Virus record (IMG/VR): IMGVR_UViG_3300042885_000900
Source: a virus
Taxonomy: Duplodnaviria; Heunggongvirae; Uroviricota; Caudoviricetes
Reading direction: 5' to 3' (one strand)
DNA: 64,000 nucleotides
This document shows, one piece after another, positions 41-36,411 of this stretch. The position numbers were made by a program, and so were the translations under genes. The number at the start of each line of letters is the position of its first letter. Positions within the stretch are counted from its first letter, which is position 1. The notes below the pieces were generated by a model. It saw only the letters and a list, made by a program, of their open reading frames with translations, had not been told where the DNA came from and ran no database searches.

Positions 41-541
41 TCATTTCTTTTTGTAACTTGTCATTGTTGGTTTATTTCCTGTTCCCACCTTTGGGTCTTT
101 CTTTTCCGCTCTTCTTTTTTGTTGGGTCATTGATTTTTTCTCATCCTTATCATATGATGATGCCACCTTTGGAGTTTCCGATGATACCTTTTTTGATGGA
201 CGACATTTTGGGTAAGCCTTTCCATCAGCATCCTTTCTTCCACAAGGAGGATGTTTTCCATCAACTTTTTTACTTACATCAACCCACTTTTCTTTAAACC
301 ATCTTTTCAAATCTTCATTAACAGCTTCGTTGGTTGATTTCTTTTTTCTCCAACCACCACCTTTTGATTTATATCGTTTGGCAGCAGCACCATTACAATA
401 CGCACTTGGACATACTTTATATTTTGACCTTGCCCAAGCCAAACATTGAGCCCATAATTTTGGGTTGGTTGGTTTATTCTCACCTTCGGTCAAATAACCT
501 TCCAATATGGTATGTTGTCTTTCTGTAATTATAAGTTTCAT
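41..541 (-). CDS. MKIIITE-family paralog with a Lys-rich basic C-terminal tail. Start taken at the internal Met (MKLIITERQ). Possible DNA-binding protein.
   Basis: ORF track. The N-terminal motif MKLIITE is shared with at least 11 other genes. The C-terminal half is very Lys-rich. Confidence 0.5.
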   Translation of the reverse strand: MKLIITERQHTILEGYLTEGENKPTNPKLWAQCLAWARSKYKVCPSAYCNGAAAKRYKSKGGGWRKKKSTNEAVNEDLKRWFKEKWVDVSKKVDGKHPPCGRKDADGKAYPKCRPSKKVSSETPKVASSYDKDEKKSMTQQKRRAEKKDPKVGTGNKPTMTSYKKK

Positions 542-815
542 ATAAATAAATATCCCCCAATTCAAAAAGAAACTGGGGGATTACATATAATTTATATTTC
601 TCGGAGAACCATTTATTTACCACTTTATGATAATTTCCTGACCCAAACCAACTTACTAAATCTAAATGAACCTTACCTACTACACCAATTTGATTAAGAC
701 TTTTATGATATATCAAAACACCATTAATACCAATAGATTTTTCATTTTCATATACTTCTCTATTGCCATAGGTAAGTTCCAAATATTTTAGTATAATTTT
801 TTCTTTCTTATCCAT
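480..815 (-). CDS. Hypothetical protein. Its 3' end overlaps the next gene and contains a GC hairpin.
   Basis: ORF track. Minus-strand gene series. Internal motif KWFSEKYKLYV resembles the C-terminal motif of the MKIIITE family. Confidence 0.4.
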   Translation of the reverse strand: MDKKEKIILKYLELTYGNREVYENEKSIGINGVLIYHKSLNQIGVVGKVHLDLVSWFGSGNYHKVVNKWFSEKYKLYVIPQFLFELGDIYLYETYNYRKTTYHIGRLFDRR

Positions 816-1072
816 TACAAAACCATTAATACCGGTAAATTATACCTCTCTTTAAACCACTCACCCAAATAATCCTGAAATTCTTTTCTTTCAACACCAA
901 ACATTGCTGAAACCTCGTCAAGTAAATCACCTCCATAAAATACAATTTCAGTCTCATGCGAATATCCAAACCCTTTTTTATTATTGGGTTTTAACCAACC
1001 AGGGTCGTTAACATCCCCAATTAGTTCCCCATAATAAAACACATCAAAATATTTGAATATTGACTTTTTCAT
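815..1072 (-). CDS. Hypothetical small protein. Its C-terminus (EWFKERYNLPV) matches the MKIIITE-family C-terminal motif.
   Basis: ORF track. A 'caaagata' box sits immediately upstream. Confidence 0.55.
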   Translation of the reverse strand: MKKSIFKYFDVFYYGELIGDVNDPGWLKPNNKKGFGYSHETEIVFYGGDLLDEVSAMFGVERKEFQDYLGEWFKERYNLPVLMVL

Positions 1073-1096
1073 TTGGCAAAGATAATTAAAAAAAAT

Positions 1097-1492
1097 TTAT
1101 CTACCAAACAATTCAAAAAATTTATCTTGATTAGTTTTCTCTGGGGGGATAATTAATGATTCAACCTTAAATGTTACAAAATCCATACCAGCATATGTCA
1201 TCTTGAAATAATCATTTAACATTAACTCATAACTCGCCTTATCTCCCATAACCAACCAATTCTCATGACAAAATATATTAACACCAACAAGAAATTTTTT
1301 AATAGGTTCAAAAGTTTGGGGGTCATATACTGATGTCGTTCTAAATCCAGCTGATTCAATATCTCTAATCTCCGGACGAGTCCTTAAGACAACCGATTTA
1401 AAAGTATCCGGTATAACAATTTCCCTATTTTCTAAAGATTTCTCGCATAATACCCGAATCTCATCCATACTTAAATTATATTCATTTTCCAT
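1097..1492 (-). CDS. Hypothetical protein
   Basis: ORF track. Minus-strand series. Confidence 0.55.
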   Translation of the reverse strand: MENEYNLSMDEIRVLCEKSLENREIVIPDTFKSVVLRTRPEIRDIESAGFRTTSVYDPQTFEPIKKFLVGVNIFCHENWLVMGDKASYELMLNDYFKMTYAGMDFVTFKVESLIIPPEKTNQDKFFELFGR

Positions 1493-1496
1493 AACC

Positions 1497-2771: not shown

Positions 2772-3050
2772 TTATTCTGAAATATCTTCAATACCGGCTT
2801 CAGGAAAATTATCTTGGAGATACCTCAACATTAAATCATTTGAGTTTTTCCCAAATATATCCTCTAATTTATCTTCCATATCATAACTTGAGAATATAAA
2901 ACTTTTACCATTTTTCCACCCATAAACTTCCCCATGATTCTTCCAATTTCGAAACTCCCTATGCTCGGGGACATAAATTAAATTTGTTCGGTGATTGATA
3001 TATTTAACGAACGCATCATACATTCTACTTTCTGTTATTAGTATTTTCAT
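2772..3050 (-). CDS. MKIIITE-family paralog (MKILITESR)
   Basis: Conserved N-terminal motif. Terminator at 2746-2767. Confidence 0.65.
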   Translation of the reverse strand: MKILITESRMYDAFVKYINHRTNLIYVPEHREFRNWKNHGEVYGWKNGKSFIFSSYDMEDKLEDIFGKNSNDLMLRYLQDNFPEAGIEDISE

Positions 3051-3051: not shown

Positions 3052-3387
3052 TTAATAATTTAATTCTTGTATATATAATAATGTACTTAATAAATTGGGT
3101 TGACCGAATTTATCGGCAACATATTCTTTACAAATATCTACCAATTCGGGGATGCCAATACCAAACATATTTTTAGCAGTACCAAAGTCATCACTATTAA
3201 AGACAATAATTTCAGTTTCTGTGTCATAATGAAAAGCAACACGACCATCACCATTCATATATTCAAATAGAACATGGGGTGCTTTCATATTTATCGCTCG
3301 TCTTCCGTGTTTTTCGTAACCTCTGAAAACCGAATCAAAAAATTTAAACACAAGTCGTTTTATTTTATCCATATTATTCATCAACAA
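3052..3387 (-). CDS. Hypothetical protein
   Basis: ORF track. Confidence 0.55.
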   Translation of the reverse strand: MLMNNMDKIKRLVFKFFDSVFRGYEKHGRRAINMKAPHVLFEYMNGDGRVAFHYDTETEIIVFNSDDFGTAKNMFGIGIPELVDICKEYVADKFGQPNLLSTLLYIQELNY

Positions 3388-3736
3388 AGTTATTTATAAT
3401 ATAATCTAATTCAATACCCAAATGTTGGATACCAAGAACTTTTAAAAAATCATATTCGTCAATTTTACGATTTTGTTTTTCGCTTAAAACCAATATACCA
3501 TATTCTTTACCTTGAGGTTGAACATAATAATTATTACCATCAATATGAAACAAATACATTGGACCAAAATTGTTAAGTAACCATCTAAACTCCTCTCTAC
3601 CATCAGAGAACAAGTGTTGACCTTTAGGTCCTAACTCAATCCAATTTGTAATTATCTCAATACGGTCAGACAAATCATATCCCACCACCTTGGTAATTAA
3701 ATCTTTTATTTTATTCTCCGTAATTATAAATTTCAT
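3374..3736 (-). CDS. MKIIITE-family paralog (MKFIITENK)
   Basis: Conserved N-terminal motif. Confidence 0.65.
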   Translation of the reverse strand: MKFIITENKIKDLITKVVGYDLSDRIEIITNWIELGPKGQHLFSDGREEFRWLLNNFGPMYLFHIDGNNYYVQPQGKEYGILVLSEKQNRKIDEYDFLKVLGIQHLGIELDYIINNFVDE

Positions 3737-3862
3737 ATTAATAAATATAACAACATCCCAAAAAAAAAGGGGGGCGGGGGGTTTGAATACGACCGGAGGG
3801 AGTTCGGGTTATGTGAGACATCAATAAAAAACCCCCAACTACTTAAAGCGGGGGTATCAATA

Positions 3863-5058: not shown

Positions 5059-5379
5059 TTAATTTACAAATCTCATTAGGTCACCCATTTTTTTTATATT
5101 ATGTTTATCCCCAAACCAATCTCTAATAATTCTTGACACATCATCAGGATTCATTAAAAAGAAAGTGGATACCATATTGGTTAATTTACTACCCCTAAAA
5201 ATAAGAATACCCCCCGATGAATTAAAAATATTGAAATATAGTATAAGGGATTTATTCTTTTTTGATATAATATCATAAGTGTTATATTTCTCTCTTGGTT
5301 TTCCCTTAATACAAACCACCTCATCCCCCAAATAATTATCCAAGAACTTATATATTATTTTTTTCATATTATTTTCCAT
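5059..5379 (-). CDS. Hypothetical protein
   Basis: ORF track. Promoter box at 5406-5413. Terminator hairpin near 5045-5060. Confidence 0.6.
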   Translation of the reverse strand: MENNMKKIIYKFLDNYLGDEVVCIKGKPREKYNTYDIISKKNKSLILYFNIFNSSGGILIFRGSKLTNMVSTFFLMNPDDVSRIIRDWFGDKHNIKKMGDLMRFVN

Positions 5380-7341: not shown

Positions 7342-8173
7342 AATTGTTCATATCTTTTTATAAATATAGTTATTAACAATTGGGTTTTAAATACTAACAG
7401 AGGGGATTGTTAATAACTTTTTATGTTAAATTTCTTGTTTTTGACAAAATGTCAGTCTCTCTTTACGATGGGGATAATCCTTTTCCCCCATTTTAATAAT
7501 ACAACCTTACCATCTTCTACCACATATTCCCACCAAATATGGTCCTATGAATAGTTAAACATCAATTTATCCCCTCTGTAGGGGTCTGTAGGACCAATAA
7601 ATTAGGTATATACATTTCCCAGTGATTTATGTTAGTTATGGTACATAACGCGTGAGAACCGTTAGGTGTTAGGATGATTACTCTTCAACCTGACTGAAAG
7701 GAAGTTCAACGACCCGTCAGGGGGTATTTTGTTCCATTTAATAGACTCCCTACGTGTCGGTCAGGACACGAACTTAATGGGTGTGGAATGGGACACCACA
7801 GAGACAGATAATACCATTAAAACTTACCTTTCGTATCAGTCCTGTGAGTTTTAAACTGACTACAATGATACAAAACATAAGTTATTATAACATCCCGTAG
7901 TATGTTCATTTCATTTGATTGTTCATTAACAATGAACATCCACTAACAATGAACGCCATACCGGATAACTAAACCTGTCCCTCATTTGTCCCCCCTTAAA
8001 AGGGGGATTAGTTAAATGGGGGGTAAAATGATTATATGTATAAATTATTGAGTTTTTTATACATATGGAAGTTGATGTGTATAGATAAATGGATTTCTTA
8101 TACATATATCCGTATTGATACGATAATATACGAAAATGATACGATTAATTATTTGAGAGATATATTTATATAT

Positions 8174-8527
8174 ATGAAATTTATTATAACAGAGAATAAA
8201 AGGAATCAGATTGTCACTGATTGGTTGGATAAGAACTATGGTAATTTAAAACCTGAACAACATAAAATTGCTTCCGTTACGTCTTATGTGGATGATAATG
8301 AAAATGAGATATTCACATCTAATTGGTCCGGATTAGTTACCATACATAACTCTGATTTACAAACAATGTTATTTACCGTATTTAATTTGGATAAGGATAG
8401 TTTAAATAGTATCTTTATACCTTGGATGATGGAGAGATATTATATAAAAGTTAATGATGTTCGGTATACCACTTGGCATTGTAATAAGTGTGGTGAATTT
8501 CATCCTACTAAATATCATATTGATTAA
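8174..8527 (+). CDS. MKIIITE-family paralog (MKFIITENKRNQIVTDWLDKNYGNLKP). It has a CxxC...H C-terminal stretch. Start taken at the internal Met.
   Basis: Its N-terminus aligns with 15391..15732 (WLNKNYGDLEP). The upstream part of the ORF is AT-rich junk. Confidence 0.6.
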   Translation: MKFIITENKRNQIVTDWLDKNYGNLKPEQHKIASVTSYVDDNENEIFTSNWSGLVTIHNSDLQTMLFTVFNLDKDSLNSIFIPWMMERYYIKVNDVRYTTWHCNKCGEFHPTKYHID

Positions 8528-8623
8528 TCCCCCTCGTTTTAAAATAGTAAAGGATGGAACTATGAGTGAAATTCCGGAACGGTAGTGTAGGAATGATAAC
8601 GAATGGTTTTATCGTTTAGTATT

Positions 8624-8980
8624 TTATTCACACTCTTTAATGTATTTTGGGAATATATCCACATCTTTTCCTATGTAATCCCATACTATGTCCCATACCT
8701 CATCTATTAAGTCATCATATCTACGCTGTACCGCTTGGGTTTGAGGCCAAAACTTGGTTCCTATTCCCCCGATAAATATTATGTCAACCCTGTAGGATAA
8801 GTAATTATTATCCGAATGTGGTAATTTGGTTCTGTTGTCCGGGTGTTTAACTTTTACACCACAGATAATATCTTGGTTATCCTTAACCAACATCTTATTT
8901 AATAACTTCTCTAATATTGGAGACAAATCCTTATTTACTTCTTCTATTAATATTCTTCTTATGGTTGTTTGTAAGTTCAT
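8624..8980 (-). CDS. MNLQ-leader family protein (MNLQTTIRRILIEEV)
   Basis: Shares the conserved N-terminal leader. Tight gene tandem. Confidence 0.6.
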   Translation of the reverse strand: MNLQTTIRRILIEEVNKDLSPILEKLLNKMLVKDNQDIICGVKVKHPDNRTKLPHSDNNYLSYRVDIIFIGGIGTKFWPQTQAVQRRYDDLIDEVWDIVWDYIGKDVDIFPKYIKECE

Positions 8981-8983
8981 ATC

Positions 8984-9547
8984 TTAATAGAATGTTTTTA
9001 ATTTCATATATGGTTCCAAATTATACTTGTCTATTATCTGTTTGAAGATTTGTTGTCTGTGTCTTAAACCTAATGTATTTTTTTGAGTGATAAAACCATA
9101 ACCAAATCCTGAATCCCCACTTAACCCCACAACTTTATAATAGGGTTGGTCATGAAGTTTTATTGGGTATAATCTTGCGGTGAACTTATACATCATATGG
9201 TCTTTGGCTCCGAATCTAAAATCACCCAATTCTTTTTCACCACGATGTTGTAGTCGTGTATTATCATTTAACCCAAGTTTTTCTACCAACGCGTCATGTA
9301 AATATAAAGACTTTTTGTCTACCGACATATATGCAAGTGGTGTGTGAGTATCTTCACTGAACTTCATAATATCTCCATCATAAAGAACACTTATTAAATA
9401 ATCAATCCCACCTATTAATTTAGATGTTACATCCATCCCTAATTTTTTTAACATGGATTTCATGGAATCTTTTTTTGATTCAGATTCTTCGGATATAACC
9501 CCACCCATCATTTGTTTTACTCTATCTATGTTCTCTTGTAAGTTCAT
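8984..9547 (-). CDS. MNLQ-leader family protein. Function unknown.
   Basis: N-terminus MNLQENIDRVKQMMGGVISE. Confidence 0.65.
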   Translation of the reverse strand: MNLQENIDRVKQMMGGVISEESESKKDSMKSMLKKLGMDVTSKLIGGIDYLISVLYDGDIMKFSEDTHTPLAYMSVDKKSLYLHDALVEKLGLNDNTRLQHRGEKELGDFRFGAKDHMMYKFTARLYPIKLHDQPYYKVVGLSGDSGFGYGFITQKNTLGLRHRQQIFKQIIDKYNLEPYMKLKTFY

Positions 9548-9550
9548 AAT

Positions 9551-9985
9551 TTATATCTTTATTTTACCAACAAAACATATTATTGACGTTAAACCTAATT
9601 CTCTTAACGCGTTTGCTCTGTGTGTCCCATCAATAATATCATACTCTTTAGTTAAAACTATTGGTGGATATGATTGTAATTCTTTGAATAATTCTATATA
9701 TTCCTCTAAATCATCTTCATCAATTTGATATACATCCATATCTATCTCATCAATAGGTATCTCTCTTACAACATAATACGGGTATTCCTCAATTCTATCC
9801 CCTAAATCCCCCTCCCAAAAATCTTCCTTTCTTTTATAATGTAACTTTTGGACATATGTATAAATTTCCGATTCTTCATATACATCACCAACCATTACAT
9901 TTGTGTTTGTAAATATGTGTGAGGTATTCTCATTAATAACCCCCATCATTTGTTTTATCCTGTTTGTTTGCTCTTGTAAGTTCAT
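9551..9985 (-). CDS. MNLQ-leader family protein with a ParB-like nuclease domain
   Basis: N-terminus MNLQEQTNRIKQMMGVINE. The motif IIDGTHRANALRELG is ParB N-terminal-like. Confidence 0.6.
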   Translation of the reverse strand: MNLQEQTNRIKQMMGVINENTSHIFTNTNVMVGDVYEESEIYTYVQKLHYKRKEDFWEGDLGDRIEEYPYYVVREIPIDEIDMDVYQIDEDDLEEYIELFKELQSYPPIVLTKEYDIIDGTHRANALRELGLTSIICFVGKIKI

Positions 9986-10033
9986 ACATATAAATATAAA
10001 AAAAAGGGAAATGTTACTTTCCCCCTCTTTTAA

Positions 10034-10660
10034 TTATCTTCTTATAAAGAAACTATCATCATCTCTCCTTATCTTCTTCATAAAGGAAAGGTAATCACCT
10101 GAATCTCTATACCCTAATGTTAATACAAGCGTGGATTTTAATCCTAATTCATCAAGCCCTAATACCTCATCTACTTGTTCCGGTATAAATCCCTCCATTG
10201 GCGTTGAATCTATTCCCTCTAGTGCTGATGCAACTAATGAGAACCCTAACCCTATATATGTTTGTTTCTGAGCCCATATTGTCTTCTGTTCCTCCGACAT
10301 ATTATTGATTGTTCCTATCATCATATTTTTGAAATCATTTAACCCCTCTATAGGAATATTTCTTTGTGTTGCCGTATCATTGATATATTTCTCCACCGAT
10401 TCTTCGTTGATTGTTTCCCATACAGCAAACACCAATACAGTTGATGAATCCTTTAGTTGTGGCTGTCCGTAGCACGCCGGAACCAATCGTTCTTTTAACT
10501 CTTGGTCCTCGATGACTATCACCTGATATGGCGTTAGCCCGTATGAACTAGGTGCCAACTTGGTTGCCTGCAATATTCTATCTAATTTGTCTTGAGGTAT
10601 TTTATCCCCATTCATTTTCTTGGTGGCATATCTCCACTCTAACGACTCTAATAATCCCAT
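10034..10660 (-). CDS. Nitroreductase-family protein
   Basis: The N-terminal RYATKKM...IPQDKLDRILQA..LAPSS.GLTPYQVIVI pattern is typical of NfsB-type nitroreductases. Confidence 0.65.
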   Translation of the reverse strand: MGLLESLEWRYATKKMNGDKIPQDKLDRILQATKLAPSSYGLTPYQVIVIEDQELKERLVPACYGQPQLKDSSTVLVFAVWETINEESVEKYINDTATQRNIPIEGLNDFKNMMIGTINNMSEEQKTIWAQKQTYIGLGFSLVASALEGIDSTPMEGFIPEQVDEVLGLDELGLKSTLVLTLGYRDSGDYLSFMKKIRRDDDSFFIRR

Positions 10661-10784: not shown

Positions 10785-11507
10785 ATGAAAAACATACACG
10801 TATTACCAACAGAAAATTCAAGTAGAGTATCTTACAACAAAGATGGTGTTTTAGAATTACATAGACTTCAATGGAGAAAGAATACTCAAAACATCTATAT
10901 CACTTCTGATGAAGAAATTAAAGAAGGGGATTGGTATATTCATAAACAAATCAATTATTTGAGAGTATCTAATTCAAATTCTATACCAATGGATGCTAAA
11001 AAAATCATCCTAACAACAGACCAAGACCTAATCAAAGATGGTGTACAAGCTATTCCTGATGAGTTTTTAGAATGGTTTGTTAAGAATCCAAGTTGTGAGA
11101 AAGTTGAGGTTGTTAAAGAAATTAATAAATCTATATCTGCAAAAGAACCTTATTATAAATACAAAATCATCATTCCAGAAGAAGAACAAAAACAACATCT
11201 TATTGATATGATGGAACAAGATGAGCAATTAGGATTGTATCAAGAACCTAAAAAAGAAACACTTGAAGAAGCTGTTGCTAAAAAATTATATCCACTTAAT
11301 GATGGGTTTCAAGTAATGGATATTGATATTAGTGAAGAATTACAATTAGCTTTCCTTAACGGTGCTAAATGGCAACAAGAAAGAAGTTATAGTAAGGAAG
11401 AGGTTGAAACAATAGCTAAAGATGCTTATACTATGGGTAGAAATAATATTCTTATAGGAGTATTTAATAAATGGTTTGAGCAATTTAAAAAGAAAATAAG
11501 TATATGA
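10785..11507 (+). CDS. Modular-array protein A: N-module (MKNIHxLPT...IYITSDEEIKEGDW...KIILTTDQ) plus C-module (GAKWQQE...FEQFKKK)
   Basis: TATCTTTG box at 10759-10766. Paralogous to 11791.., 13493.. and 18057... Confidence 0.7.
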   Translation: MKNIHVLPTENSSRVSYNKDGVLELHRLQWRKNTQNIYITSDEEIKEGDWYIHKQINYLRVSNSNSIPMDAKKIILTTDQDLIKDGVQAIPDEFLEWFVKNPSCEKVEVVKEINKSISAKEPYYKYKIIIPEEEQKQHLIDMMEQDEQLGLYQEPKKETLEEAVAKKLYPLNDGFQVMDIDISEELQLAFLNGAKWQQERSYSKEEVETIAKDAYTMGRNNILIGVFNKWFEQFKKKISI

Positions 11508-11794
11508 AAAAAACAATTGAAGAAGTTGCTGAAAGATTAGTAAAAGAAACTACATTGTACGGAAGCCAAGAAGCTAGTATTGGAAGTTCTGCTAGAAGTT
11601 ATTTTGAAACAGAATTACGATGTGTGTTGTTGGGTATGAAATGGCAACAAGAACAAGACAAGAAAATGTATAGTGAGTTGGTTGATTTATTGGAAAGATT
11701 AACGACAATTTATAAAGAAGATTGTCATTTAGATATTAAGTACGATAAAAAAAGATTAGAATTTATTGAACAATTTAAAAAGAAATCATTATGA
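11504..11794 (+). CDS. Modular-array protein B. Free-standing C-module (KWQQEQDK...EQFKKK).
   Basis: ATGA overlap with both neighbours. Shared motifs. Confidence 0.6.
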   Translation: MKKTIEEVAERLVKETTLYGSQEASIGSSARSYFETELRCVLLGMKWQQEQDKKMYSELVDLLERLTTIYKEDCHLDIKYDKKRLEFIEQFKKKSL

Positions 11795-12540
11795 AAAACA
11801 TACATTTATTACCAACAGATAAACCAAGTAGGTTATACTTAACAAAAGAAGGGTTTTATTTTTTATTACCTAACATTAAAGGTAATGCTGTGAAATTTCA
11901 ACACATTTACATCACTTCTGATGAAGAAATTAAAGAAGGAGATTGGTTTTATAATATAATATCTTTAAAACCTGAACCATTTAAGGCTTGTGAAAATGGT
12001 AATGGATATGTAAATTGTAGTAAATATTCACATAATAGAATTGATTGTAAAAAAATCATCCTAACAACAGACCAAGAATTAATCAAAGAGGGTGTACAAG
12101 CTATTGATGAGGATTTTTTAGAATGGTTTGTTAAAAATCCAAGTTGTGAAAAGATTGAAGTAAATAAAAGTTATAGCGGTATTTATTATATCAAATATCC
12201 TTACAAAATCATCATTCCACAAGAAGAACCTAAACAAGATGAAATTGATTTTATGGCTAATGAACTAGTTATAGAAAAAGAAAAATTTGAAAGTAAAGAA
12301 ACACTTGAACAAGAAACTTGTAATTTTTGTGGTAAAACATTAAGAGAACAGATGAAAGGTTGTGGTGAAATAACTTGTTATAGACAGTTTTTACCTAAAC
12401 AAGAAACACTTGAAGATTTCTGCACTAGAGAACTATCAAATTTTAATGATAATGTAAGAAATACTCAGTTCGATTTAGGTTTTAGAACTGGAGCCATTAT
12501 TGGACTTAGATTTCCAAAAGAAAGAAGTTATAATGAGTAA
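11791..12540 (+). CDS. Modular-array protein C: N-module plus a Cys-rich segment. It is truncated by an in-frame TAA relative to its paralogs.
   Basis: Paralog alignment. The downstream in-frame remnant ends IIEQFKKK. Confidence 0.6.
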   Translation: MKNIHLLPTDKPSRLYLTKEGFYFLLPNIKGNAVKFQHIYITSDEEIKEGDWFYNIISLKPEPFKACENGNGYVNCSKYSHNRIDCKKIILTTDQELIKEGVQAIDEDFLEWFVKNPSCEKIEVNKSYSGIYYIKYPYKIIIPQEEPKQDEIDFMANELVIEKEKFESKETLEQETCNFCGKTLREQMKGCGEITCYRQFLPKQETLEDFCTRELSNFNDNVRNTQFDLGFRTGAIIGLRFPKERSYNE

Positions 12541-12687
12541 GAAGCTAGATCTTCTTTAACAGATTTGTCGTTAGTTAATCCTGCTCATTTAACAATGACA
12601 AGTGATGGTTATGGAGAGTTTCCTGATAGTTATAAATTAACTGAAAAAGGCATTAACTACATTATTGAACAATTTAAAAAGAAATAA
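12541..12687 (+). pseudogene. In-frame continuation of gene C after its stop. It encodes ...MTSDGYGEFPDSYKLTEKGINYIIEQFKKK, a detached C-module remnant, or a site of stop-codon readthrough.
   Basis: I translated this region myself. It is in the same frame as 11791..12540 and ends with the family-typical EQFKKK stop. Confidence 0.4.
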
Positions 12688-12688
12688 G

Positions 12689-12997
12689 ATGAAAAAAGAA
12701 ACACTTGAAGATTTTACCAAAGAAGTATTGCAAGATGAATTTTTTACAAATATGGCTGAATACGGAAAAGCTGAAAGACTTATTGAAATTGGAGCTAAAT
12801 GGCAACAAGAACAAGACAAGAATAAGTATAGTGAACAAGATATTTTAGATATAAATAATTGGTATTTGGAAACTTTTTTAGATGATGCTCTAGGTTTAAA
12901 TGGTAATGATGCTGAACAAAAAGTAAAGCATTTATCAGGTAAAGGTCTTACAAAAGAAGTTTTAGATTATTGGTTTGAACAAATTAAAAAGAAATAA
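12689..12997 (+). CDS. Modular-array protein D, C-module only (MKKETLED...GAKWQQEQDK...WFEQIKKK)
   Basis: ATG start chosen over the TTG start in the ORF track. Confidence 0.55.
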   Translation: MKKETLEDFTKEVLQDEFFTNMAEYGKAERLIEIGAKWQQEQDKNKYSEQDILDINNWYLETFLDDALGLNGNDAEQKVKHLSGKGLTKEVLDYWFEQIKKK

Positions 12998-12998
12998 G

Positions 12999-13262
12999 AT
13001 GAAAGAAACACTTGAAGAAGTAAAAGATTTAGCATACTACAGAGCTAATGCAGAAGAAGATTATTTGCAAGTGCCAATAAGTGTATTGAGGTATATCTCT
13101 GAGCTTGAAGAAAAAAGTTATAGTGAGGAAGATATGAAACAATTTGCTTGGGAATGTGTTGCCAATTTTCTTTCTAATAGTGATAATAAGGTGGAAATGG
13201 CACTTGTAGAAGTTATTATGGATAGAAACAGTAAACAGTTTGAACAATTTAAAAAGAAATAA
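12999..13262 (+). CDS. Modular-array protein E, C-module variant (MKETLEEV...FEQFKKK)
   Basis: ATG chosen over the TTG start. Confidence 0.55.
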   Translation: MKETLEEVKDLAYYRANAEEDYLQVPISVLRYISELEEKSYSEEDMKQFAWECVANFLSNSDNKVEMALVEVIMDRNSKQFEQFKKK

Positions 13263-13265
13263 GAT

Positions 13266-15304: not shown

Positions 15305-15390
15305 ATATGTTTCTTTTTATTTATAATAATAAGTATTTTTTACCACGTTATCAATAGGAATGTTTTATCTTTGTATGATATTTATTTAAT

Positions 15391-15732: not shown

Positions 15733-15740
15733 GGGTGACA
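15644..15740 (+). repeat. 32-bp direct repeat gggtggaggaacgttacaatttaagggtgaca, two copies (15644-15675 and 15709-15740), with a degenerate third copy at 15772-15798
   Basis: Read directly from the sequence. It overlaps the 3' end of 15391..15732. Confidence 0.6.
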
Positions 15741-21994: not shown

Positions 21995-22027
21995 ATAAAT
22001 AAATATCCCATAAATTAAAAAACCCCA

Positions 22028-23361: not shown

Positions 23362-23691
23362 TTATTGTAAAACACCTTTTTGTGTGTGATGTATAATTTT
23401 AACCGGTAATTCAAACTTATCTTCAAACCAATTTTTTATCAATTTTTTATATTCCGGTGGTGTATAACCGAAATAAACTATAGGTGCAAGAATATCATCA
23501 CAAATATATAAAGCTCTTGTCTTTTCACCGTAAATCATTATAACACCATCACCATTTCTATAATCAATTCTCTTATGTTCTCCTGTTGAATCTGTAATAT
23601 AATCAACATCAATATACATATTAGAAAATGCTTTATCCAATTCTTTTTTTGCTAATTCGTCTCTACGACTTTCTTTTATTACTATTCTCAT
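23362..23691 (-). CDS. MKIIITE-family paralog (MRIVIKESR)
   Basis: N-terminal motif. C-terminus NWFEDKFELPV. Confidence 0.6.
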   Translation of the reverse strand: MRIVIKESRRDELAKKELDKAFSNMYIDVDYITDSTGEHKRIDYRNGDGVIMIYGEKTRALYICDDILAPIVYFGYTPPEYKKLIKNWFEDKFELPVKIIHHTQKGVLQ

Positions 23692-24308
23692 ACATCATTT
23701 GATTTTATATTATAGACACTTCTGTATCTACTTTTTAAGTCATAATCACTCAAAGCTTCTAACTCACTAATCCCATATAACGCATTTTTATAAAGATAAT
23801 TAATCATTTCTTCTCTACTTAAATTATCAGTACTAACCATTTGATAACATTTATGCCAAGCATCTAATCCGTGAGTTTCATCAATCTCTATTTCCGGATG
23901 ACCAATCTCTTGTCCAAACTTGGTTGTGTATTTATCGTCATACCATTCAGTAATAACATTAAATATAAAGGTTTTTCTAACCTGTAATATTTTAGATAAA
24001 TAATTAATCTCTTCTTTATCAACATATAAATCACCGGCAAAAAACTTTACATCCTCCACATAATCGGGACCATAATTTTCATCACCATCATTCATAAAAT
24101 TATACCTCGCCTCAATAATAATTTTATCTCCTTTACACCATTCCTCATTATAGTTCCCGTAATTCTCTTCAGTAGGTGGAGTGACTCTTGTTGTATTAGA
24201 GATAATTTTCTCCATATGTTTAATAATAATTGATTTAGCAGCGTCTGTACCTCTGATAAATCGTTTACTAACTTCTTCTCTTAATATCTTTTTAATTAAA
24301 TCTTTCAT
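23688..24308 (-). CDS. Hypothetical protein with the N-terminus MKDLIKKILREE
   Basis: ORF track. The N-terminal motif is shared with 38424..39362. Confidence 0.55.
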   Translation of the reverse strand: MKDLIKKILREEVSKRFIRGTDAAKSIIIKHMEKIISNTTRVTPPTEENYGNYNEEWCKGDKIIIEARYNFMNDGDENYGPDYVEDVKFFAGDLYVDKEEINYLSKILQVRKTFIFNVITEWYDDKYTTKFGQEIGHPEIEIDETHGLDAWHKCYQMVSTDNLSREEMINYLYKNALYGISELEALSDYDLKSRYRSVYNIKSNDV

Positions 24309-24309: not shown

Positions 24310-24918
24310 TTATTTAATAATTCTGAACCTTAATAATGGTTTGCCATTTATTGTTATATCACCTTTTTCATTCTTATCTATTGTCTTAACAACAACCTTT
24401 TTGTTTTTGAATTTTCCACCCATTATGGTATCACCAACTTTAATATCCAATTTAATCATTTCACTTAATGTTAATTCTCTATTATCATCTTGAGTGTTCC
24501 AAATATCTTGCCCGGTTCCCTTGTGAATTAATTTAATTGAGTCTCTTGGTATATCATCAAAGGTAACAATATGTTTATACTTATCATCAAAATGAGCATC
24601 TTTATACCATTGAACATTTGATTTTTCTGTATCTATCACCCATATGTCATCATCATAAGTTGAATCAAACATATCTTTTTTCTTTAAACTATTGGTGGCA
24701 AATACTGCAGGAACACATTCTTCATCGTCACTGTATTCACTGGCTGCGTGAGTTAAATAACAATCACCTAACACCGCTCTAATCCCATAGTCCATAATAC
24801 TATCTCGGTTAGACTTATTAGAGGAATGGACAACATATTTCCCGGGAGTAATCTCTTCTCCCTTAACCCTTTGTTCTTGCAACAATTTATATTGTAATTC
24901 TGTTATAATTATTTTCAT
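24310..24918 (-). CDS. Hypothetical protein (MKIIITELQ N-terminus), 202 aa
   Basis: ORF track. Confidence 0.55.
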   Translation of the reverse strand: MKIIITELQYKLLQEQRVKGEEITPGKYVVHSSNKSNRDSIMDYGIRAVLGDCYLTHAASEYSDDEECVPAVFATNSLKKKDMFDSTYDDDIWVIDTEKSNVQWYKDAHFDDKYKHIVTFDDIPRDSIKLIHKGTGQDIWNTQDDNRELTLSEMIKLDIKVGDTIMGGKFKNKKVVVKTIDKNEKGDITINGKPLLRFRIIK

Positions 24919-24919: not shown

Positions 24920-25297
24920 TTATTCTATAGCTCTTTCTAAAAATATAACATCTTCTATCTCTTTATCACCATAAATACTTGGGTATTTACTAGTATAAAT
25001 TTTAAAAATTCTTTTAATTAAATCTTTTCTTATTGCATTATAAATTTTACGGGAACCAAAAATTGGACTAATCAAATCATAAAAATAATCATCACTCACT
25101 TTAATAAATTTTTTGGTATCAAATCCGTAATATTCCGCTATCACATGTTTTCTTGTTCCCGGAGTTACAAATTGGATTTTTTTTCCATTCATTCTTACTT
25201 GGAAGGCTCTTATTAAACTATCCTTATCAATATCAAGACTACTAATAATAATATCTTTTAATTTTTCTATTTTTTCTTCACTAATCTTAATATCCAT
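24920..25297 (-). CDS. Hypothetical protein
   Basis: ORF track. Confidence 0.55.
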   Translation of the reverse strand: MDIKISEEKIEKLKDIIISSLDIDKDSLIRAFQVRMNGKKIQFVTPGTRKHVIAEYYGFDTKKFIKVSDDYFYDLISPIFGSRKIYNAIRKDLIKRIFKIYTSKYPSIYGDKEIEDVIFLERAIE

Positions 25298-25929
25298 ATG
25301 TATAAATATAACACGAGAGTAAAAATTACTCCCATCTTTTGAACGAAGGTAATTTTGAGTTCTTTTTACTCTCGTTTAATTCTTTTTATCTTATATTTCG
25401 TTTGCAAAATGGAACACAATGCGTAGAAAAGGGCGAATGAAATATATTACCAATCACCGCAAGATGAACCTTAATTTTTAGGGTTTATATTACCACCAAA
25501 AGTAATAAACCCCCAACAATGTGAGGGTTTACTTTTTTTTCATAAGTTCTCTTATTTCTATCTGTAATTGATGTAGTTCAGGGTCAGTCATAAGTAGATA
25601 ACGCGATTTAATATCCCGATAATTATTTCGTATATCATTGATTGTCCATTTTAAAAATAGAGTAATTAAGTCAATTTTTATTTTTAGGTTTCTCATCTCT
25701 TAATATATCGTAAATCGCTAGACAGCAAAAAATAACCAACAATAATATAAAACCGTACAACGGGAATATTGGGTCGGGTATCACAACTTTTATGGTAATA
25801 GATTAGGGAAGATTAAGATATCTTCGTCTGATAAATACTCATCATCATCGAATTGTTCCATTTTTTTGTGATATTATTTCAATTATTTAAATATATTTGT
25901 ATTTTTCTGTTAAATATTCTTTTTTTTCA

Positions 25930-27349: not shown

Positions 27350-28059
27350 TATGTCCAGTAATTATGTTCCTTTGTAAAGAACTCATCATTATTTCTATTA
27401 AACCAAGATTTAATCATCATCTTAACCATATAGAATAATCCTTTATTCTTAAATCTTCTTGATGTGGTGTAAACAATTTCGTTATCCACATAAAACTTAT
27501 TTGGCGTTATCTTTGAACTTAAATGGTAATCCTCGGCAAACTTATCATCCGGATTAAATCCTCCTAATGAATTAAACACCTCTCTATTAAATAACATAAA
27601 TCCACCTACAGCAAATGGTGTGGTGAATTTGGTTAAGTATTGGATAACATCAAATGATTTATATACATAATTGTAATGTCCATCATCTGTTCTCATTTTA
27701 GTTGTGGATAAATGATAATCGTTATTTTTCATTACCTTAACCATATGGGATAATAAATTAAGGTCAGTAATGAATATGTCGGCATCCAAAAATAAAACAT
27801 AAGGTGTTTTTATCTTTTTGGTTCCGTTGTTTCTGGCTTCAGCTGGAAATCCACCTTTAACTATTTTTACATTAATGTTATTATGAAATGAATGAAGAAT
27901 ACAATTCTGTGTGAATCCGTTGTCTGTTGAAGAGTCGGCAACCATAACATTCACATTTTTAATATTAGTTTGCAAGTTTATTAACTCCAAAGTTTTCTTT
28001 ATGATTAAACCCTCATTTTTACAGGGTATGACTATCGTTAAATCCTTACTTAAACTCAT
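27349..28059 (-). CDS. Family-2 glycosyltransferase
   Basis: Typical GT-A pattern: IVIPCKNEG near the N-terminus, then DAD. Confidence 0.6.
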   Translation of the reverse strand: MSLSKDLTIVIPCKNEGLIIKKTLELINLQTNIKNVNVMVADSSTDNGFTQNCILHSFHNNINVKIVKGGFPAEARNNGTKKIKTPYVLFLDADIFITDLNLLSHMVKVMKNNDYHLSTTKMRTDDGHYNYVYKSFDVIQYLTKFTTPFAVGGFMLFNREVFNSLGGFNPDDKFAEDYHLSSKITPNKFYVDNEIVYTTSRRFKNKGLFYMVKMMIKSWFNRNNDEFFTKEHNYWT

Positions 28060-29648
28060 ATACTAATATCGTCTAATCTGTAATTAACATTTTCATTTAC
28101 TACATCATAATCAGGTGATGGATACCATCTATCATCAGGACTATAATCAGGTTTTTCAATATAATCTTCTGAAATTAATGTATCAAGGACGCCTTCTAAA
28201 TTATAACCTCCATCTCTACTTAGATTATCTTCAAATATTACATCAATATCTTCATCATCAACATCAACTAAATTACTTAAATCAATTTGGATTTTGGCTC
28301 CATCACTATTAAAGAAAAACACATTACCATAAAACTCTAACGCCGATTTTATTTCATCCTGTAAATGATTAACATAATCGTCAGCGTCAGCATCATTTAT
28401 TGCACCACCAATAGCATTTTTAATTTCATAATCACCATCAACTTCTCCTATCGCGTCTTCTAAAGATAAACTATCGTCTAATTCAATACCATCTCTTTGA
28501 GACATGTCTCTAACAATCGCCCATAACTTTTCTTCTGTTGGTTTATCCATTACATATTCAAAATAACTTGGTAAATCTTCATTATCGTGTTGACCCCATA
28601 AATTCCAAGCATCACCTTCCATTATCTCTTCAAAAATACTAACCCTTTTTACCACACCTGTTGTTCTATTAGTATAACTATTGTAAGTTCCCCCATCAAT
28701 ATACCTGTGAAAATCATCCGGGGTAATATCTAATGTAAATGTTGTTGGGAGTGGTTGGACATCAACAATTCCCATCTTACCTAACAATCGTTGCATGGTT
28801 CTTGATGAGAATAACTCCGGTCTGTTTTTATATAAATCTTTGATTGTTTCTTCTGGTAAATCAGATAGTTTAAAGTCCTGTTCTGATGCGTATTCTGTTC
28901 CAAATCCTTGAATTAAGTAATCCTCTTCTTCTCCTGAACCACCTAACACATAGAATAATGGTAAAATATATTGATGGTATTCATCTTTTGGTTTAGAGTT
29001 CTTAACACCCTTTAATTGATATAAAATACCATCCTCACCGATTGCGGCAGTTAGAACCGATTTATTTAATTTATATTTATTATTAATTGGGATATTTTGT
29101 CTTAATGAATAAAGATACCCATAACTACTTCTTCCACAATGCCCCATCCTGTTGCACTCAGCTTCTGAATTTTTTGTATTCAAATCCGCCCAATAAAACC
29201 CATTTCCGTTCTCATCTGTAAAATCTAATATGGTAGGGTTTGTTTCTTTATAGTTAATATCTCCCTGACCAACTTCTAAACTATCGTGCCATACCTCCGA
29301 TTTTCCCCATAATTCTTTGAATGGTAAATTTTGGTATTCTTTGACATTACCATTTAACCCGACTCTAATCCAATCCATAATAGATTGTATCTTACTACGA
29401 TGTCCGGTAATAAAACGATTACTATTCATTTTATCAACCAATGCTTGACCCTGACTAGCTGGCTTACCCCAACCTAACTCAATATTTTGCTGAAACTCCA
29501 TCACTTTTTTAGCCATCCAAATTGCTAACGGACCACAAACAGAATCTAATATTTCAGCGTTCTCTTCGTTAAACCCAATCTTATCCAATAAGATTTGTTT
29601 CTTGGATGCTTCAGATATAATTTGTTTTATACTTTCTATTAATTTCAT
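28056..29648 (-). CDS. Large hypothetical protein, 530 aa, with an acidic C-terminal region
   Basis: ORF track. Overlaps the start of the GT2 gene. Confidence 0.6.
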   Translation of the reverse strand: MKLIESIKQIISEASKKQILLDKIGFNEENAEILDSVCGPLAIWMAKKVMEFQQNIELGWGKPASQGQALVDKMNSNRFITGHRSKIQSIMDWIRVGLNGNVKEYQNLPFKELWGKSEVWHDSLEVGQGDINYKETNPTILDFTDENGNGFYWADLNTKNSEAECNRMGHCGRSSYGYLYSLRQNIPINNKYKLNKSVLTAAIGEDGILYQLKGVKNSKPKDEYHQYILPLFYVLGGSGEEEDYLIQGFGTEYASEQDFKLSDLPEETIKDLYKNRPELFSSRTMQRLLGKMGIVDVQPLPTTFTLDITPDDFHRYIDGGTYNSYTNRTTGVVKRVSIFEEIMEGDAWNLWGQHDNEDLPSYFEYVMDKPTEEKLWAIVRDMSQRDGIELDDSLSLEDAIGEVDGDYEIKNAIGGAINDADADDYVNHLQDEIKSALEFYGNVFFFNSDGAKIQIDLSNLVDVDDEDIDVIFEDNLSRDGGYNLEGVLDTLISEDYIEKPDYSPDDRWYPSPDYDVVNENVNYRLDDISI

Positions 29649-29709
29649 ATCACTATAAATATATCAAAATTAAATAATAGGTTAATATATTTATTATAAA
29701 ATAACCTTT

Positions 29710-33837: not shown

Positions 33838-33838
33838 A

Positions 33839-34486
33839 ATGGAAAAAATTATCGCAATGTATTACAAATCCCTTAAAAAACCAACAAATATAAATGGTCT
33901 TTTACTTTATCCATTTATGGAAGATGGAAAAATAAGATGGGAATACGATAACCAAAACAATGTATCATTTAATATTGATACAATAGAAGGATATTTAGAA
34001 CAATTAATTTATGATTTTTTTAAGTTAGTTGGTATTGAACCTGATTTTAGAGAACTAACCCCTAAATATTGTAAAATAGATTCTCCTAAAACTTTATATA
34101 TTAATAATGAATTAAAATCAAAACTTGAAAAGTCATTATCTAAAATAAAAACAATGCATCTTTTTGATGGTGAAAAGAATTTTAAATGCAATTCACAAAT
34201 GATTAATTGGGAATTAAAAAGACAGGACAACGAATCATTATCTCTTTATGTTAGTTTTAAAATTTACAACGCATCTATAGATAAAGAACCTGTTGACGAT
34301 ATTAAAGCGAGTAAGTGGTTACAAGAATTTACTTATTCTGATTGGGCAATGGAAAGTGAAGAAGATGTGATACACGAAGCGACAAGTATCATATACTATG
34401 AAAAAAATATATATGATAAAGATTATATGTCTATCAATACGGTACTAGATTATTATGATACTGAAGGTAATCCAATGCTTCGTTAA
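33839..34486 (+). CDS. Hypothetical protein
   Basis: ORF track. Confidence 0.55.
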   Translation: MEKIIAMYYKSLKKPTNINGLLLYPFMEDGKIRWEYDNQNNVSFNIDTIEGYLEQLIYDFFKLVGIEPDFRELTPKYCKIDSPKTLYINNELKSKLEKSLSKIKTMHLFDGEKNFKCNSQMINWELKRQDNESLSLYVSFKIYNASIDKEPVDDIKASKWLQEFTYSDWAMESEEDVIHEATSIIYYEKNIYDKDYMSINTVLDYYDTEGNPMLR

Positions 34487-34848
34487 GTGAAATCAATATC
34501 AACACAAACCATTGGTAACCATTTTTCTATTTCATCAAGAATACTATCCTTAACATCATCTTCAACCCAACTTGGTAAATCTGTAATGTATTTCATATAT
34601 TCCCAATCACCTTCAAACCCAACCTTAATTTCAATTGGTTCAAGATATATTGTCCCACTATATATACAATTATTGTATTTTTTAGTTTCCCAAATATTAA
34701 CACGGTCAATCCTATAAATCACAGACCAATTGGCATAATCATTATTAGTGGAATACGGCATCATATATTTTCCCTCCATAGTCATAACTTTATTAAATAA
34801 TTTAGTTATTAACTTTTTAATTTTTTCTATTTTTTCTTCAGGATTCAT
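34483..34848 (-). CDS. Hypothetical protein
   Basis: ORF track. Confidence 0.5.
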   Translation of the reverse strand: MNPEEKIEKIKKLITKLFNKVMTMEGKYMMPYSTNNDYANWSVIYRIDRVNIWETKKYNNCIYSGTIYLEPIEIKVGFEGDWEYMKYITDLPSWVEDDVKDSILDEIEKWLPMVCVDIDFT

Positions 34849-35882
34849 TATATGTAGTCAGGGAATAATTCATTTATGTTTTGAATAGTACGTCTATAAT
34901 CCGGATAATCAGGGATTCTAAAATCAAGACGATTTTCCTCTCCATCATCCATAAGTTCATTCATCATAGTTAACCAAGACCCTATATAATCAATATTATA
35001 CTCATAACTTCCCCACAAATTTCTATCCCCAACATATTTTTTAATTGAGTTCTTAACTTCATTGGGATTAAATTTGATATAATAATATTCTATAAGTTGG
35101 TCAGGATAATTTCTTTTAGGTTCTGATAACCATTGTGTTGATTTAGTATCAAAAAAAGTCTCTAACTCATTCATAACCATATCGTAAATTTCAGATTCTA
35201 ACGCGTTATTATAAGCATTGTTATGAATATTATATAATTCACTTTCTAAATCTTCTAAATAACCTTCATTCATCAAATAGTTCATTGATTCCTCATCACC
35301 TATAACATCACCAACATTATCAGATTCTAAATAAAAAACACCCTCATCATCTACAAAATTTTGAAATAAGTCAGGACTATCATCATCAACCTCAATCTTC
35401 CAATTGGTTAATTTATCTAAAATATATGTTTTTAATAAATTAAGATTATTTGGATTTAATTCACTAATAACATCACGATAAACATCATCCGTTGTATTAT
35501 CATATGGATGCCAACTATCTTCACCCAATACCGATATAGCCACTTGAGCCGCAGTTAAATCTCTACCTCTATCATCAAATAAAATTGATAAATCTTCTCG
35601 GTCACCCATTTTTAAATAATAACCATCTTCTTTTTGAACAATATTTGACAATTGTTTTATACATTTTTGAAGAACCTCCTCACTACCTAATGTGTTAATC
35701 ATATAGTCAAGTAATTCTAATTGCTCATCCTCTAATTCACCAATAAATGGGTCAATTAAATGAATTAAGTTTTTAGATTTGAAGAATCTTAATACACTGT
35801 TAATATCCCCAAATATATCAACAAGATGATTAAGTTCTCCTCTATTAAATTCCTCAACATATTTTAATAATTTATTATCCAT
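34848..35882 (-). CDS. Hypothetical acidic protein, 344 aa
   Basis: ORF track. Confidence 0.6.
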   Translation of the reverse strand: MDNKLLKYVEEFNRGELNHLVDIFGDINSVLRFFKSKNLIHLIDPFIGELEDEQLELLDYMINTLGSEEVLQKCIKQLSNIVQKEDGYYLKMGDREDLSILFDDRGRDLTAAQVAISVLGEDSWHPYDNTTDDVYRDVISELNPNNLNLLKTYILDKLTNWKIEVDDDSPDLFQNFVDDEGVFYLESDNVGDVIGDEESMNYLMNEGYLEDLESELYNIHNNAYNNALESEIYDMVMNELETFFDTKSTQWLSEPKRNYPDQLIEYYYIKFNPNEVKNSIKKYVGDRNLWGSYEYNIDYIGSWLTMMNELMDDGEENRLDFRIPDYPDYRRTIQNINELFPDYI

Positions 35883-36411
35883 AATTGAATTCAGTTTTAC
35901 TCGTATATTCCGGTGTTCCGTAGATGACTTTTATTCCAGTGTTTGTTGTTATATTATCTTTAAAATAATCATTTATACCCCAATCTACCTCATCTCTTAT
36001 TTCCCACCCAAAAATATCATCATTTAATGCGTCTTCTAATGTCCTGTGTCCATTACCTAAATCAACACTACCCGCCATATCATCCACCTTTATTCTAACA
36101 ACAACAAATGGTTCGTCATCATCTAAATCCCAATTATCAATATCCACAACCTCAAAAAAGAAATCATAATTACCATAATCATCTATATGATGGGGATTTT
36201 GAAGTAATAAAGATTTTGCTAACTCTTTTGCTTGGTCATTACCTCTAAACTCAACTAAATATTTATATGCTTGGTCATAAGTAACCATTGGATTACCGCT
36301 ATCTAATCCGAACAAACTAATGAAAGTTTTGTCTACTTTCCATTTTCCGGTCTTACCCCAATATTTAAAAAAGATGTTTTTTAATTTGGATTCTGTCAGT
36401 ATAAATTTCAT
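35875..36411 (-). CDS. MKIIITE-family paralog (MKFILTESK), extended to 178 aa
   Basis: Conserved N-terminal motif. Confidence 0.6.
   Translation of the reverse strand: MKFILTESKLKNIFFKYWGKTGKWKVDKTFISLFGLDSGNPMVTYDQAYKYLVEFRGNDQAKELAKSLLLQNPHHIDDYGNYDFFFEVVDIDNWDLDDDEPFVVVRIKVDDMAGSVDLGNGHRTLEDALNDDIFGWEIRDEVDWGINDYFKDNITTNTGIKVIYGTPEYTSKTEFNYG

Follow-up and report, generated by a model that had tools for sequence, protein, structure and literature searches.

A portable N-terminal leader conforming to the T4 prohead-core motif, carried by an unannotated protein family and by unrelated proteins in an uncultured clade of T4-like phages

The sequence analyzed in this study (hereafter the window) is a stretch of 64,000 nucleotides (nt) of the IMG/VR virus record IMGVR_UViG_3300042885_000900, from a tailed phage (Caudoviricetes), in which a first-pass annotation made from the letters alone had pointed out a family of small proteins starting with MKIIITE(S/N)(K/R). 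The present analysis revealed that this start is a separable leader, found both on the members of a true protein family and on unrelated proteins, and that it conforms to the hydrophobic-I-x-E box found at the N-terminus of proteins of the T4 prohead core. We see about an even chance that the leader is a capsid-targeting and cleavage propeptide marking proteins that are made late and loaded into the head. What is new here is best described as a variant of the T4-type capsid-targeting propeptide, carried by an unannotated and expanded family in an abundant uncultured clade.

The leader is real and its frequency lies far beyond chance. A search of the open reading frames (ORFs) with the expression ^M[KR][ILFV][IVL][ILV][TK]E retrieved exactly the 11 ORFs listed by the first-pass annotation, at the same coordinates (consensus MK(I/F/L)(I/V)(I/L)TE), compared to 0.0015 expected by chance in about 103 genes from amino-acid composition. 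Seven of these ORFs are members of one family and four have unrelated bodies. A signal peptide was considered and dismissed, the leader being too short, acidic at position 7 and devoid of a hydrophobic core.

All-against-all BLAST links eight ORFs of the family, and an iterative hidden Markov model (HMM) search within the window raises this number to 14. Since the leader itself adds to the HMM score, it was masked and the search was repeated. The robust core after masking consists of 11 ORFs (seven with and four without the leader), to which a probable 12th can be added. The true multigene family proposed initially therefore exists, with 11 to 12 members. Their pairwise identity is only 9-40% (median of 18%), indicating that they are old paralogs. 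The family consensus contains WLNxNYGDLEP and W(F/V)xExYxLxV, in agreement with the N- and C-terminal motifs quoted previously. The members are the following:

15391-15732, plus strand: leader MKIIITE; reference for the structure model (BLAST, masked HMMs)
8174-8527, plus strand: leader MKFIITE; C-terminal CxxC...H..H tail (BLAST, masked HMMs)
20839-21210, minus strand: with leader; gene 3 of a tandem triple (BLAST, masked HMM)
21210-21611, minus strand: with leader; gene 2 of the tandem triple (BLAST, masked HMM)
21608-21994, minus strand: with leader; gene 1 of the tandem triple, ATATTTAT motif directly upstream
23362-23691, minus strand: leader MRIVIKE; final gene of the operon 24920 > 24310 > 23688 > 23362
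2772-3050, minus strand: leader MKILITE; shorter and more divergent (masked HMMs, E 2.8e-14 and E 0.0019)
815-1072, minus strand: without leader; TAnnTTTG box starting 12 nt 5′ of the ATG
480-815, minus strand: without leader; directly downstream of 815-1072 (masked HMMs)
3052-3381, minus strand: without leader; TAnnTTTG 11 nt 5′ of the ATG
5059-5379, minus strand: without leader; TAnnTTTG 25 nt 5′ of the ATG
19306/19327-19641, plus strand: without leader; probable divergent member (masked HMM, E 0.04; external profile, E 1.2e-4)

The last three were absent from the list of the first-pass annotation, whereas 480-815 and 815-1072, which it had included on the basis of their C-termini, are genuine members. 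The direct tandem of three copies that it had described at 20839-21994 is also found here, with start and stop codons that abut or overlap. Furthermore, a syntenic contig of 321 kb (L001) carries four tandem members (8584-10342) at the place where the window has one (15391-15732), showing that the copy number varies between close relatives.

In the four other ORFs starting with the leader, the body does not belong to the family:

41-541, minus strand: leader MKLIITE fused to the Pfam domain DUF5872 (PF19197, 3.6e-18)
24310-24918, minus strand: leader MKIIITELQYKLLQE, then an unrelated body of 200 amino acids (aa)
3374-3736, minus strand: leader MKFIITE on a different body, which has its own orthologues in L001
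35875-36411, minus strand: leader MKFILTE on a different acidic body of 178 aa

The DUF5872 domain of 41-541 covers residues 24-148, downstream of the leader, and scores 66.7 bits (gathering cut-off of 27.5). Comparisons of 3374-3736 and 35875-36411 with the family after removal of the leader gave hhalign probabilities below 1%. Homology over the whole length, which had been claimed for all the listed ORFs, is thus restricted to the core members and does not extend to these four. The related statement that the family shares more than a leader fails as a general rule: four of the 11 listed ORFs share the leader alone, five members of the family lack it and, in related phages, it precedes 40 unrelated clusters of proteins.

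These related phages were represented by 70 loci (1.08 Mb in all, each with about 30% GC, on contigs of up to 322 kb), in which 234 ORFs start with the leader, 101 of them outside the family. Clustering of the bodies of 260 leader ORFs from about 1.1 Mb of related loci gave 50 clusters, including the 40 unrelated to the family. The leader is therefore a separable and portable module. It is not part of the predicted fold of the family domain: the AlphaFold2 model of 15391-15732 has a mean predicted local distance difference test score (pLDDT) of 88.3, residues 1-4 are below 50 and helix 1 begins at residue 9. In addition, the first residue of the paralogs devoid of leader is exactly the start of helix 1 in the tagged ones. 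Across 73 homologues, M1, I5 and E7 are the only leader residues with at least 90% conservation. All leader codons show synonymous variation; Thr is encoded by all four of its codons and Ser8 by AGY (62%) or TCN (37%). Since the codons vary synonymously and Ser comes from both AGY and TCN, selection acts on the peptide.

The pattern of conserved residues can be compared with that of phage T4, whose prohead protease gp21 recognizes a short (L/I)-x-E motif and cleaves behind its Glu, with the "LIE-9" site of gp21 as an example (PMC9026906); Alt is processed at ITE-6 (PMC5694885). In the T4 record, Alt starts with MELITE, gp67 with MEGLIE, gp68 with MLLIPE, gp21 with MNEPQLLIE and gp22 with MLKEQLIAE. 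From these starts, an N-terminal hydrophobic-I-x-E box emerges as the hallmark of T4 prohead-core proteins, and the sequence MKIIITE conforms to it. The closest T4 N-terminus is that of Alt. The internal proteins of T4 have a capsid targeting sequence (CTS) of 10 residues, MKTYQEFIAE, removed once they are loaded; the leader is not similar to this CTS, with which it has only a Met-Lys start and an I-x-E end in common.

A second type of leader, MNLQENIxRIKxMMG followed by (I/V)-(I/N/S/A)-E, precedes at least seven unrelated proteins of the window, among which a ParB-like protein:

8624-8980, 8984-9547 and 9551-9985 (span 8624-9985), minus strand: second leader, MNLQ(E/T)..I.R(I/V).., ending in hydrophobic-I/L-x-E
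14738-15304, minus strand: second leader on an Acb1-like protein
16454-17227, minus strand: second leader on a flavodoxin-like protein
15988-16452 and 17224-17724, minus strand: second leader on further unrelated bodies

The span 14738-17724 also contains the plus-strand family member 15391-15732. The Acb1-like protein is a 2H phosphoesterase of 188 aa with the leader MELNEQITKIKTMMGINE; it matches the Pfam family Acb1 (anti-CBASS, i.e. directed against the cyclic-oligonucleotide-based antiphage signalling system) with 28.1 bits for a cut-off of 27, and a sequence search of the PDB returned no match for it. Among orthologues of the flavodoxin-like protein (n = 111), position P3 of the box is I, L or V in 100% of the cases and P1 is E in 100%, while P2 is occupied by eight different residues. 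Two different leader helices, MNLQENIQRIREMM and MIKLADLISEIM, are found ahead of this one highly conserved mature protein. The AlphaFold2 model of a protein of the second type gives a pLDDT below 50 for the leader helix and a domain of high confidence from about residue 23. Both leaders thus satisfy the gp21-type (L/I)-x-E propeptide motif (at least 90% for I5 and E7; 111 of 111 for the second box), and two metagenomic members of the family carry them in series (MNLQEDIYRIQGVMG-IITESRL). Other N-termini of the window end in such a box (MKDLIKKILRE, MKLIESIKQIISE, MKNIILTE, MSRKIRLTE and MAKRFIISE). Overall, [IL]xE ends within the first 12 residues of 31 of the 103 genes, compared to 12% of interior segments of 12 residues (p = 8e-7, the paralogs not being independent).

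Further helix-type leaders with the same end box start the products of 23688-24308 (MKDLIKKILREE) and 38424-39362 (MRDLIKKILKEQ). The flavodoxin-like (WrbA-like) protein 16454-17227 shows 77-93% identity across the best 120 of its 3,847 database matches and ranks, within the clade, with the genes of highest conservation and abundance, unlike the divergent small family.

Several related phages carry head genes of the T4 type. Searches with T4 proteins detected homologues of gp20 (1e-26) and gp21 (6e-17) in three family-bearing loci (L026, L033 and L034). A search for gp21 with a T4-anchored alignment retrieved generic T4-like phages only; the gp21 of the clade itself was used as query and identified at least 600 IMG/VR contigs with this type of gp21. 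The clade homologue is 32% identical to T4 gp21, and the columns of T4 His85 and Ser140, which we take to be catalytic residues, are invariant in an alignment of three sequences. The head genes of the clade are ordered as follows: terminase, portal, a gene of 238 aa, an optional family member, a gene of 155 aa, gp21, a gene of 71 aa, an acidic scaffold-like gene of about 500 aa, and gp23. In L026, L033, L034 and L160, the genes for portal and protease flank leader-bearing family members, which occupy the position of the core genes 67 and 68 in T4. Furthermore, the capsid protein of the clade reads ..ENQASFLINE↓ATSEG where T4 gp23 has ..FGSFLTE65↓AEIGG (arrows mark the cut in T4 and the putative cut in the clade). 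Since FLINE↓A stands at the place of FLTE65↓A, the aligned sequences suggest that the specificity of the protease is conserved between T4 and the clade. Through the tail tube and other structural genes, more family loci, among them contigs of 281 and 296 kb, are connected with the contigs carrying head genes.

The head genes and the tagged genes also share a promoter-like motif. The 8-mer ATATTTAT is found upstream of 49 of 60 gp21 genes (at about 22 nt), 27 of 52 gp20 genes and 12 of 29 gp23 genes, compared to 2.4% of random windows of 70 nt. In the window, it starts 12-14 nt 5′ of the ATG of ten genes, including the first genes of leader-headed operons:

21999-22006, minus strand: ATATTTAT box, starting 12 nt 5′ of the ATG of 21608-21994
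546-553, minus strand: ATATTTAT box before 41-541
3741-3748, minus strand: ATATTTAT box before 3374-3736
8162-8169, plus strand: ATATTTAT box before 8174-8527
9990-9997, minus strand: ATATTTAT box before 9551-9985
15378-15385, plus strand: ATATTTAT box before 15391-15732
17729-17736, minus strand: ATATTTAT box before 17224-17724
25302-25309, minus strand: ATATTTAT box before 24920-25297
29655-29662, minus strand: ATATTTAT box before 28056-29648
50850-50857, minus strand: ATATTTAT box before 49487-50845

The box also starts 20 nt 5′ of the tail-fibre-like gene 59423-61882, the first of three genes of the tail-fibre region. The paralogs devoid of leader 815-1072, 3052-3381 and 5059-5379 are preceded instead by TAnnTTTG, the −7 box of sigma-A in Bacteroidota, which spans −12 to −5 from the transcription start site (TSS) in Flavobacterium (PMC9723704). 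The TAnnTTTG motif is present ahead of 20554-20838 and 22802-23308 as well. In the window, an N-terminal [IL]xE is encoded by 14 of the 18 genes located behind ATATTTAT compared to none of the 13 located behind TAnnTTTG (p = 1.9e-5); in about 2 Mb of the clade, the proportions are 40% and 14% (odds ratio of 4.2, p = 9e-11). These motifs suggest that the tagged genes are co-regulated with the head genes. Moreover, many mRNAs of the phage may be leaderless, since a box spanning −12 to −5 that starts 12 nt before the ATG would put the transcription start at the A of this ATG.

Taken together, the evidence points to late expression beside the head genes and to targeting to the prohead. On the propeptide reading, the tagged proteins would be made late alongside the head genes, and the leader would direct them to the scaffolding core of the assembling prohead. 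A gp21-type protease would then cut the hydrophobic-I-x-E box after Glu, i.e. MKIIITE↓S for the first leader and MNLQENIQRIREMMISE↓E for the second type, whose amphipathic helix and I-x-E box would do the same job for enzymes. Once loaded and trimmed, the proteins would either enter the next host along with the ejected DNA or be expelled during head maturation. The paralogs devoid of leader, behind promoters of the host type, would provide the same domain in an ordinary cytoplasmic form. Such a scheme explains why the leader behaves as a module, which of its residues are invariant, how two different leaders arrived at one box, and why the leader is unstructured and stops just before the fold; it also accounts for the gene neighbourhood in some relatives and for the class of promoter. 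It is compatible with injected proteins that act at the start of the following infection, like Alt and IPI of T4, but not with ordinary early genes.

It should also be emphasized that several points weigh against this reading. Cleavage and packaging are both steps that we infer, and the motif shared with the head genes is the single line suggesting late timing. The gp21/gp23 module was found neither in the 64-kb window nor on a contig proven to come from the same genome; the relatives that have it are linked to the window by the family, by the leader and promoter motif, and by structural genes. The interval between portal and protease genes holds family members in few of the 80 head loci (five family matches). 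Most family members are acidic, unlike the basic internal proteins IPI-III of T4, and about 30% of the genes of the window encode an N-terminal [IL]xE, which is far more cargo than in known phage heads. Residues K2, I3 and I4 are conserved at a fixed distance from Met1, although neither the residues nor the distance is needed for protease specificity alone. Finally, the leader codons are biased to ATA, AGT and AAA and many tagged mRNAs may be leaderless, so that some constraint at the RNA level probably exists besides that on the peptide.

The strongest alternative, which we regard as rather unlikely, is that the leader acts as a module at the protein level in some other way, for example as a short β-strand or helix start serving oligomerization, docking to a common partner or stability, on late cytoplasmic proteins that never enter the capsid. 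A role of this kind would agree with a conservation that covers the whole heptapeptide beyond the I-x-E box, with the very large number of tagged genes and with the acidity of the family members; furthermore, a model of the monomer by AlphaFold2 cannot reveal the pairing of strands between molecules. However, it leaves unexplained why invariance falls precisely on P3 and P1 of the T4 protease motif, with P2 free, why two quite different leaders converge on one box and why some relatives have family members in the interval from the portal gene to the protease gene.

It is less probable still that conservation operates mainly on RNA or DNA, the A-rich first codons of leaderless mRNAs being favoured by selection on the start of transcription or on the loading of ribosomes in a host lacking Shine-Dalgarno sequences. 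Many ATGs are located exactly 12 nt after the start of ATATTTAT or TAnnTTTG, i.e. 4 nt downstream of a box that would occupy −12 to −5, as the sigma-A −7 box does from the TSS in Flavobacterium (PMC9723704), and ATA provides 58-75% of the Ile codons of the leader compared to 29% in gene bodies, AGT being enriched too. However, the genes 20839, 21210, 23362 and 24310, internal to operons and devoid of promoter, also carry the leader; Ser and Thr are drawn from both codon boxes and from all four codons, respectively; the conserved box of the second leader lies 15-17 codons past the start; and paralogs located behind TAnnTTTG with the same spacing do not have the peptide.

We consider it very improbable that the leader is functionless and merely tolerated, recombination between the starts of genes in a hyperplastic region having spread it together with the adjacent promoter. 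Family and leader genes do vary in number and order between close relatives (as in L001, with four tandem copies for one in the window), and leaders have been swapped on orthologous proteins. However, the peptide is kept across about 1,100 clusters at 50% identity although the DNA of the leader differs between copies, which argues for long-term purifying selection on the peptide. Lastly, an N-terminal degradation tag for a Clp-type protease, making tagged proteins short-lived on a timer, seems extremely unlikely: a gene for a 245-aa protease of the ClpP family is found some 8 kb outside the left end of the window and the Met-basic-hydrophobic-hydrophobic-hydrophobic pattern presumably resembles, loosely, an N-terminal recognition class of Escherichia coli ClpX, but nothing ties this gene to the tagged proteins, an invariant Glu with a variable P2 is foreign to known N-degrons and the second leader type does not fit.

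If the leader is a propeptide, its closest precedent is the set of propeptides of T4 CTS and prohead-core proteins (IPI, IPII, IPIII, Alt, gp67 and gp68), in which the same short peptide ending in hydrophobic-(I/L)-x-E is found on unrelated proteins. The related phages studied here likewise have a gp21 homologue, a head gene order of the T4 type and a cleavage-like site in the capsid protein. They differ from T4 by dozens of tagged genes per genome (compared to about four to ten), known here from sequence, by a leader that is not homologous to MKTYQEFIAE, by at least two leader architectures and by tagged proteins that are mostly acidic. Propeptides of head and ejection proteins also occur in giant phages related to phiKZ (phiKZ gp175, SPN3US gp245), where many head-internal proteins are likewise cut after Glu by a protease related to gp21, and the SPN3US paralogs gp53 and gp54 have identical N-termini (PMC5694885). 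However, the motif of these giant phages is S/A/G-x-E or A-x-E, with a small P3 (A/S/G) instead of I/L/V, and their propeptides are long, without a single universal short leader. Hypervariable internal-protein loci and hyperplastic regions of T4-like phages also consist of clusters of small, diverse and non-essential-looking genes whose content varies between relatives, and CTS-like starts have been noted in those of T2, T4 and T6 (PMC9026906). In contrast with these regions, one domain reaches 11-12 copies here, some of them tagged and others not.

Cargo-loading peptides of encapsulins and encapsulation peptides of bacterial microcompartments are short, portable and often amphipathic-helical, and route diverse enzymes into a shell. 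The helix MNLQENIxRIKxMMG resembles them, but this is an analogy only, since the shells are different and the peptide is not removed by proteolysis in these systems.

The core of the family is a previously undescribed α/β domain of about 100 aa. The first-pass annotation had considered that it might prove to be a common domain with a housekeeping role; no known or housekeeping domain matches it, and searches of Pfam, PHROGs, NCBIfam, PADLOC and the sequences of the PDB gave no significant match, whether to a profile or to a fold. When 1.84 billion cluster representatives were searched with a family profile, 1,110 clusters were retrieved at E ≤ 1e-3, all unnamed, so that about 1,100 metagenomic clusters at 50% identity belong to the family; nearly all the best matches start with MK(I/Y/F/L/V)IITE(S/N)(K/R)L. 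The isoelectric point (pI) is 4.4-6.0 for nine and above 9 for two of the 14 ORFs of the window assigned to the family before masking. Each paralog is kept in related phages, and therefore the paralogs do not look like fast-evolving decoys, decoys being one of the roles suggested initially besides host takeover and anti-defence. The domain itself may conceivably serve for binding or inhibition.

The window originates from an uncultured, AT-rich, large myophage of the T4-like type, whose host is probably a member of the Bacteroidota. It has about 30% GC and small, tightly packed genes, predominantly on the minus strand. The JGI contig Ga0621872_00142, of 321 kb, is syntenic with it. No match was found among 50,697 phage records by megablast of 9 kb of the window or tblastn of one family member; among these records, the core family is carried by no isolate. 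Scans of the window for tRNAs and Rfam families returned no match, and PHROG and Pfam scans of 20 of its larger proteins gave hardly any annotation. Genes of the clade also include a tail sheath of 1,274 aa, a family B DNA polymerase and a T4 baseplate protein; a giant eukaryotic virus was considered as source and rejected in view of the tail sheath and baseplate protein, together with the portal, gp21 and gp23. The closest isolates are at most 47% identical in their capsid protein. Flavobacterium phage immuto, which is among them, was unusable as a model, with a different replication module and no leader ORF in its first 50 kb.

Several other features were observed in or near the window. On three near-identical contigs that contain the exact 815-1072 protein (L071-L073), a gene encoding a family 2 glycosyltransferase is located just outside the left end of the window, on the same side as the ClpP-family gene mentioned above, which was found on these contigs. 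A DNA methyltransferase-like ORF of 635 aa (45665-47572, minus strand) appears to have its N-terminal part (..SPPY..) split from its C-terminal part by a large insertion, which may be an intein or a homing-endonuclease insertion; in a related phage (L037), a LAGLIDADG insertion lies inside an SNF2 helicase. The paralogous tail-fibre-like proteins 52012-54279 and 59423-61882 (minus strand) have Pro/Thr-rich linkers and a C-terminal domain with YGxLYNWYAV, and between them 54291-59081 (minus strand) encodes a protein of 1,596 aa with long collagen-like G-T-S-G-x-x repeats. Two pairs of small paralogs are present on the minus strand (41234-41488/41791-42045 and 2086-2412/2415-2708), one consisting of proteins of 84 aa with an N-terminal hydrophobic segment and the other of very acidic proteins of about 100 aa. 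Finally, a plus-strand island (10785-14443 and 18057-18866) carries a separate paralog family starting with MKNIHLLPTDKPSRL:

10785-11507, 11791-12540, 13493-14443 and 18057-18866, plus strand: MKNIHLLPTDKPSRL paralogs
11504-11794, 12689-12997, 12999-13262 and 13266-13496, plus strand: short ORFs ending in ..FEQFKKK, interleaved with the MKNIHLLPTDKPSRL paralogs

Whatever the mechanism of the leader, the core domain defines a large unannotated protein family without a detectable relative of solved structure. Beyond the propeptide reading itself, we tentatively raise the possibility that a widespread environmental T4-like clade uses portable leaders (MKIIITE↓ and helix-G-I-x-E↓) to load dozens of proteins that are delivered with the DNA, so that the injected "first-minute" proteome would greatly exceed that of T4 in size; the same domains would also be kept as untagged early genes. 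The cargo would then include the small α/β family, the Acb1-like phosphodiesterase, the ParB-like nuclease and the flavodoxin-like reductase. If the leaders do act as capsid-targeting propeptides, the proteins that a very abundant uncultured clade (at least 600 IMG/VR contigs for the protease and 3,847 database matches for one tagged enzyme) packages and ejects would be readable from sequence alone, and their diversity would be several times that known from any phage studied so far. Anti-defence enzymes made beforehand might arrive together with the genome, and the leaders would offer new short tags with which foreign proteins could be loaded into capsids of the T4-like type.

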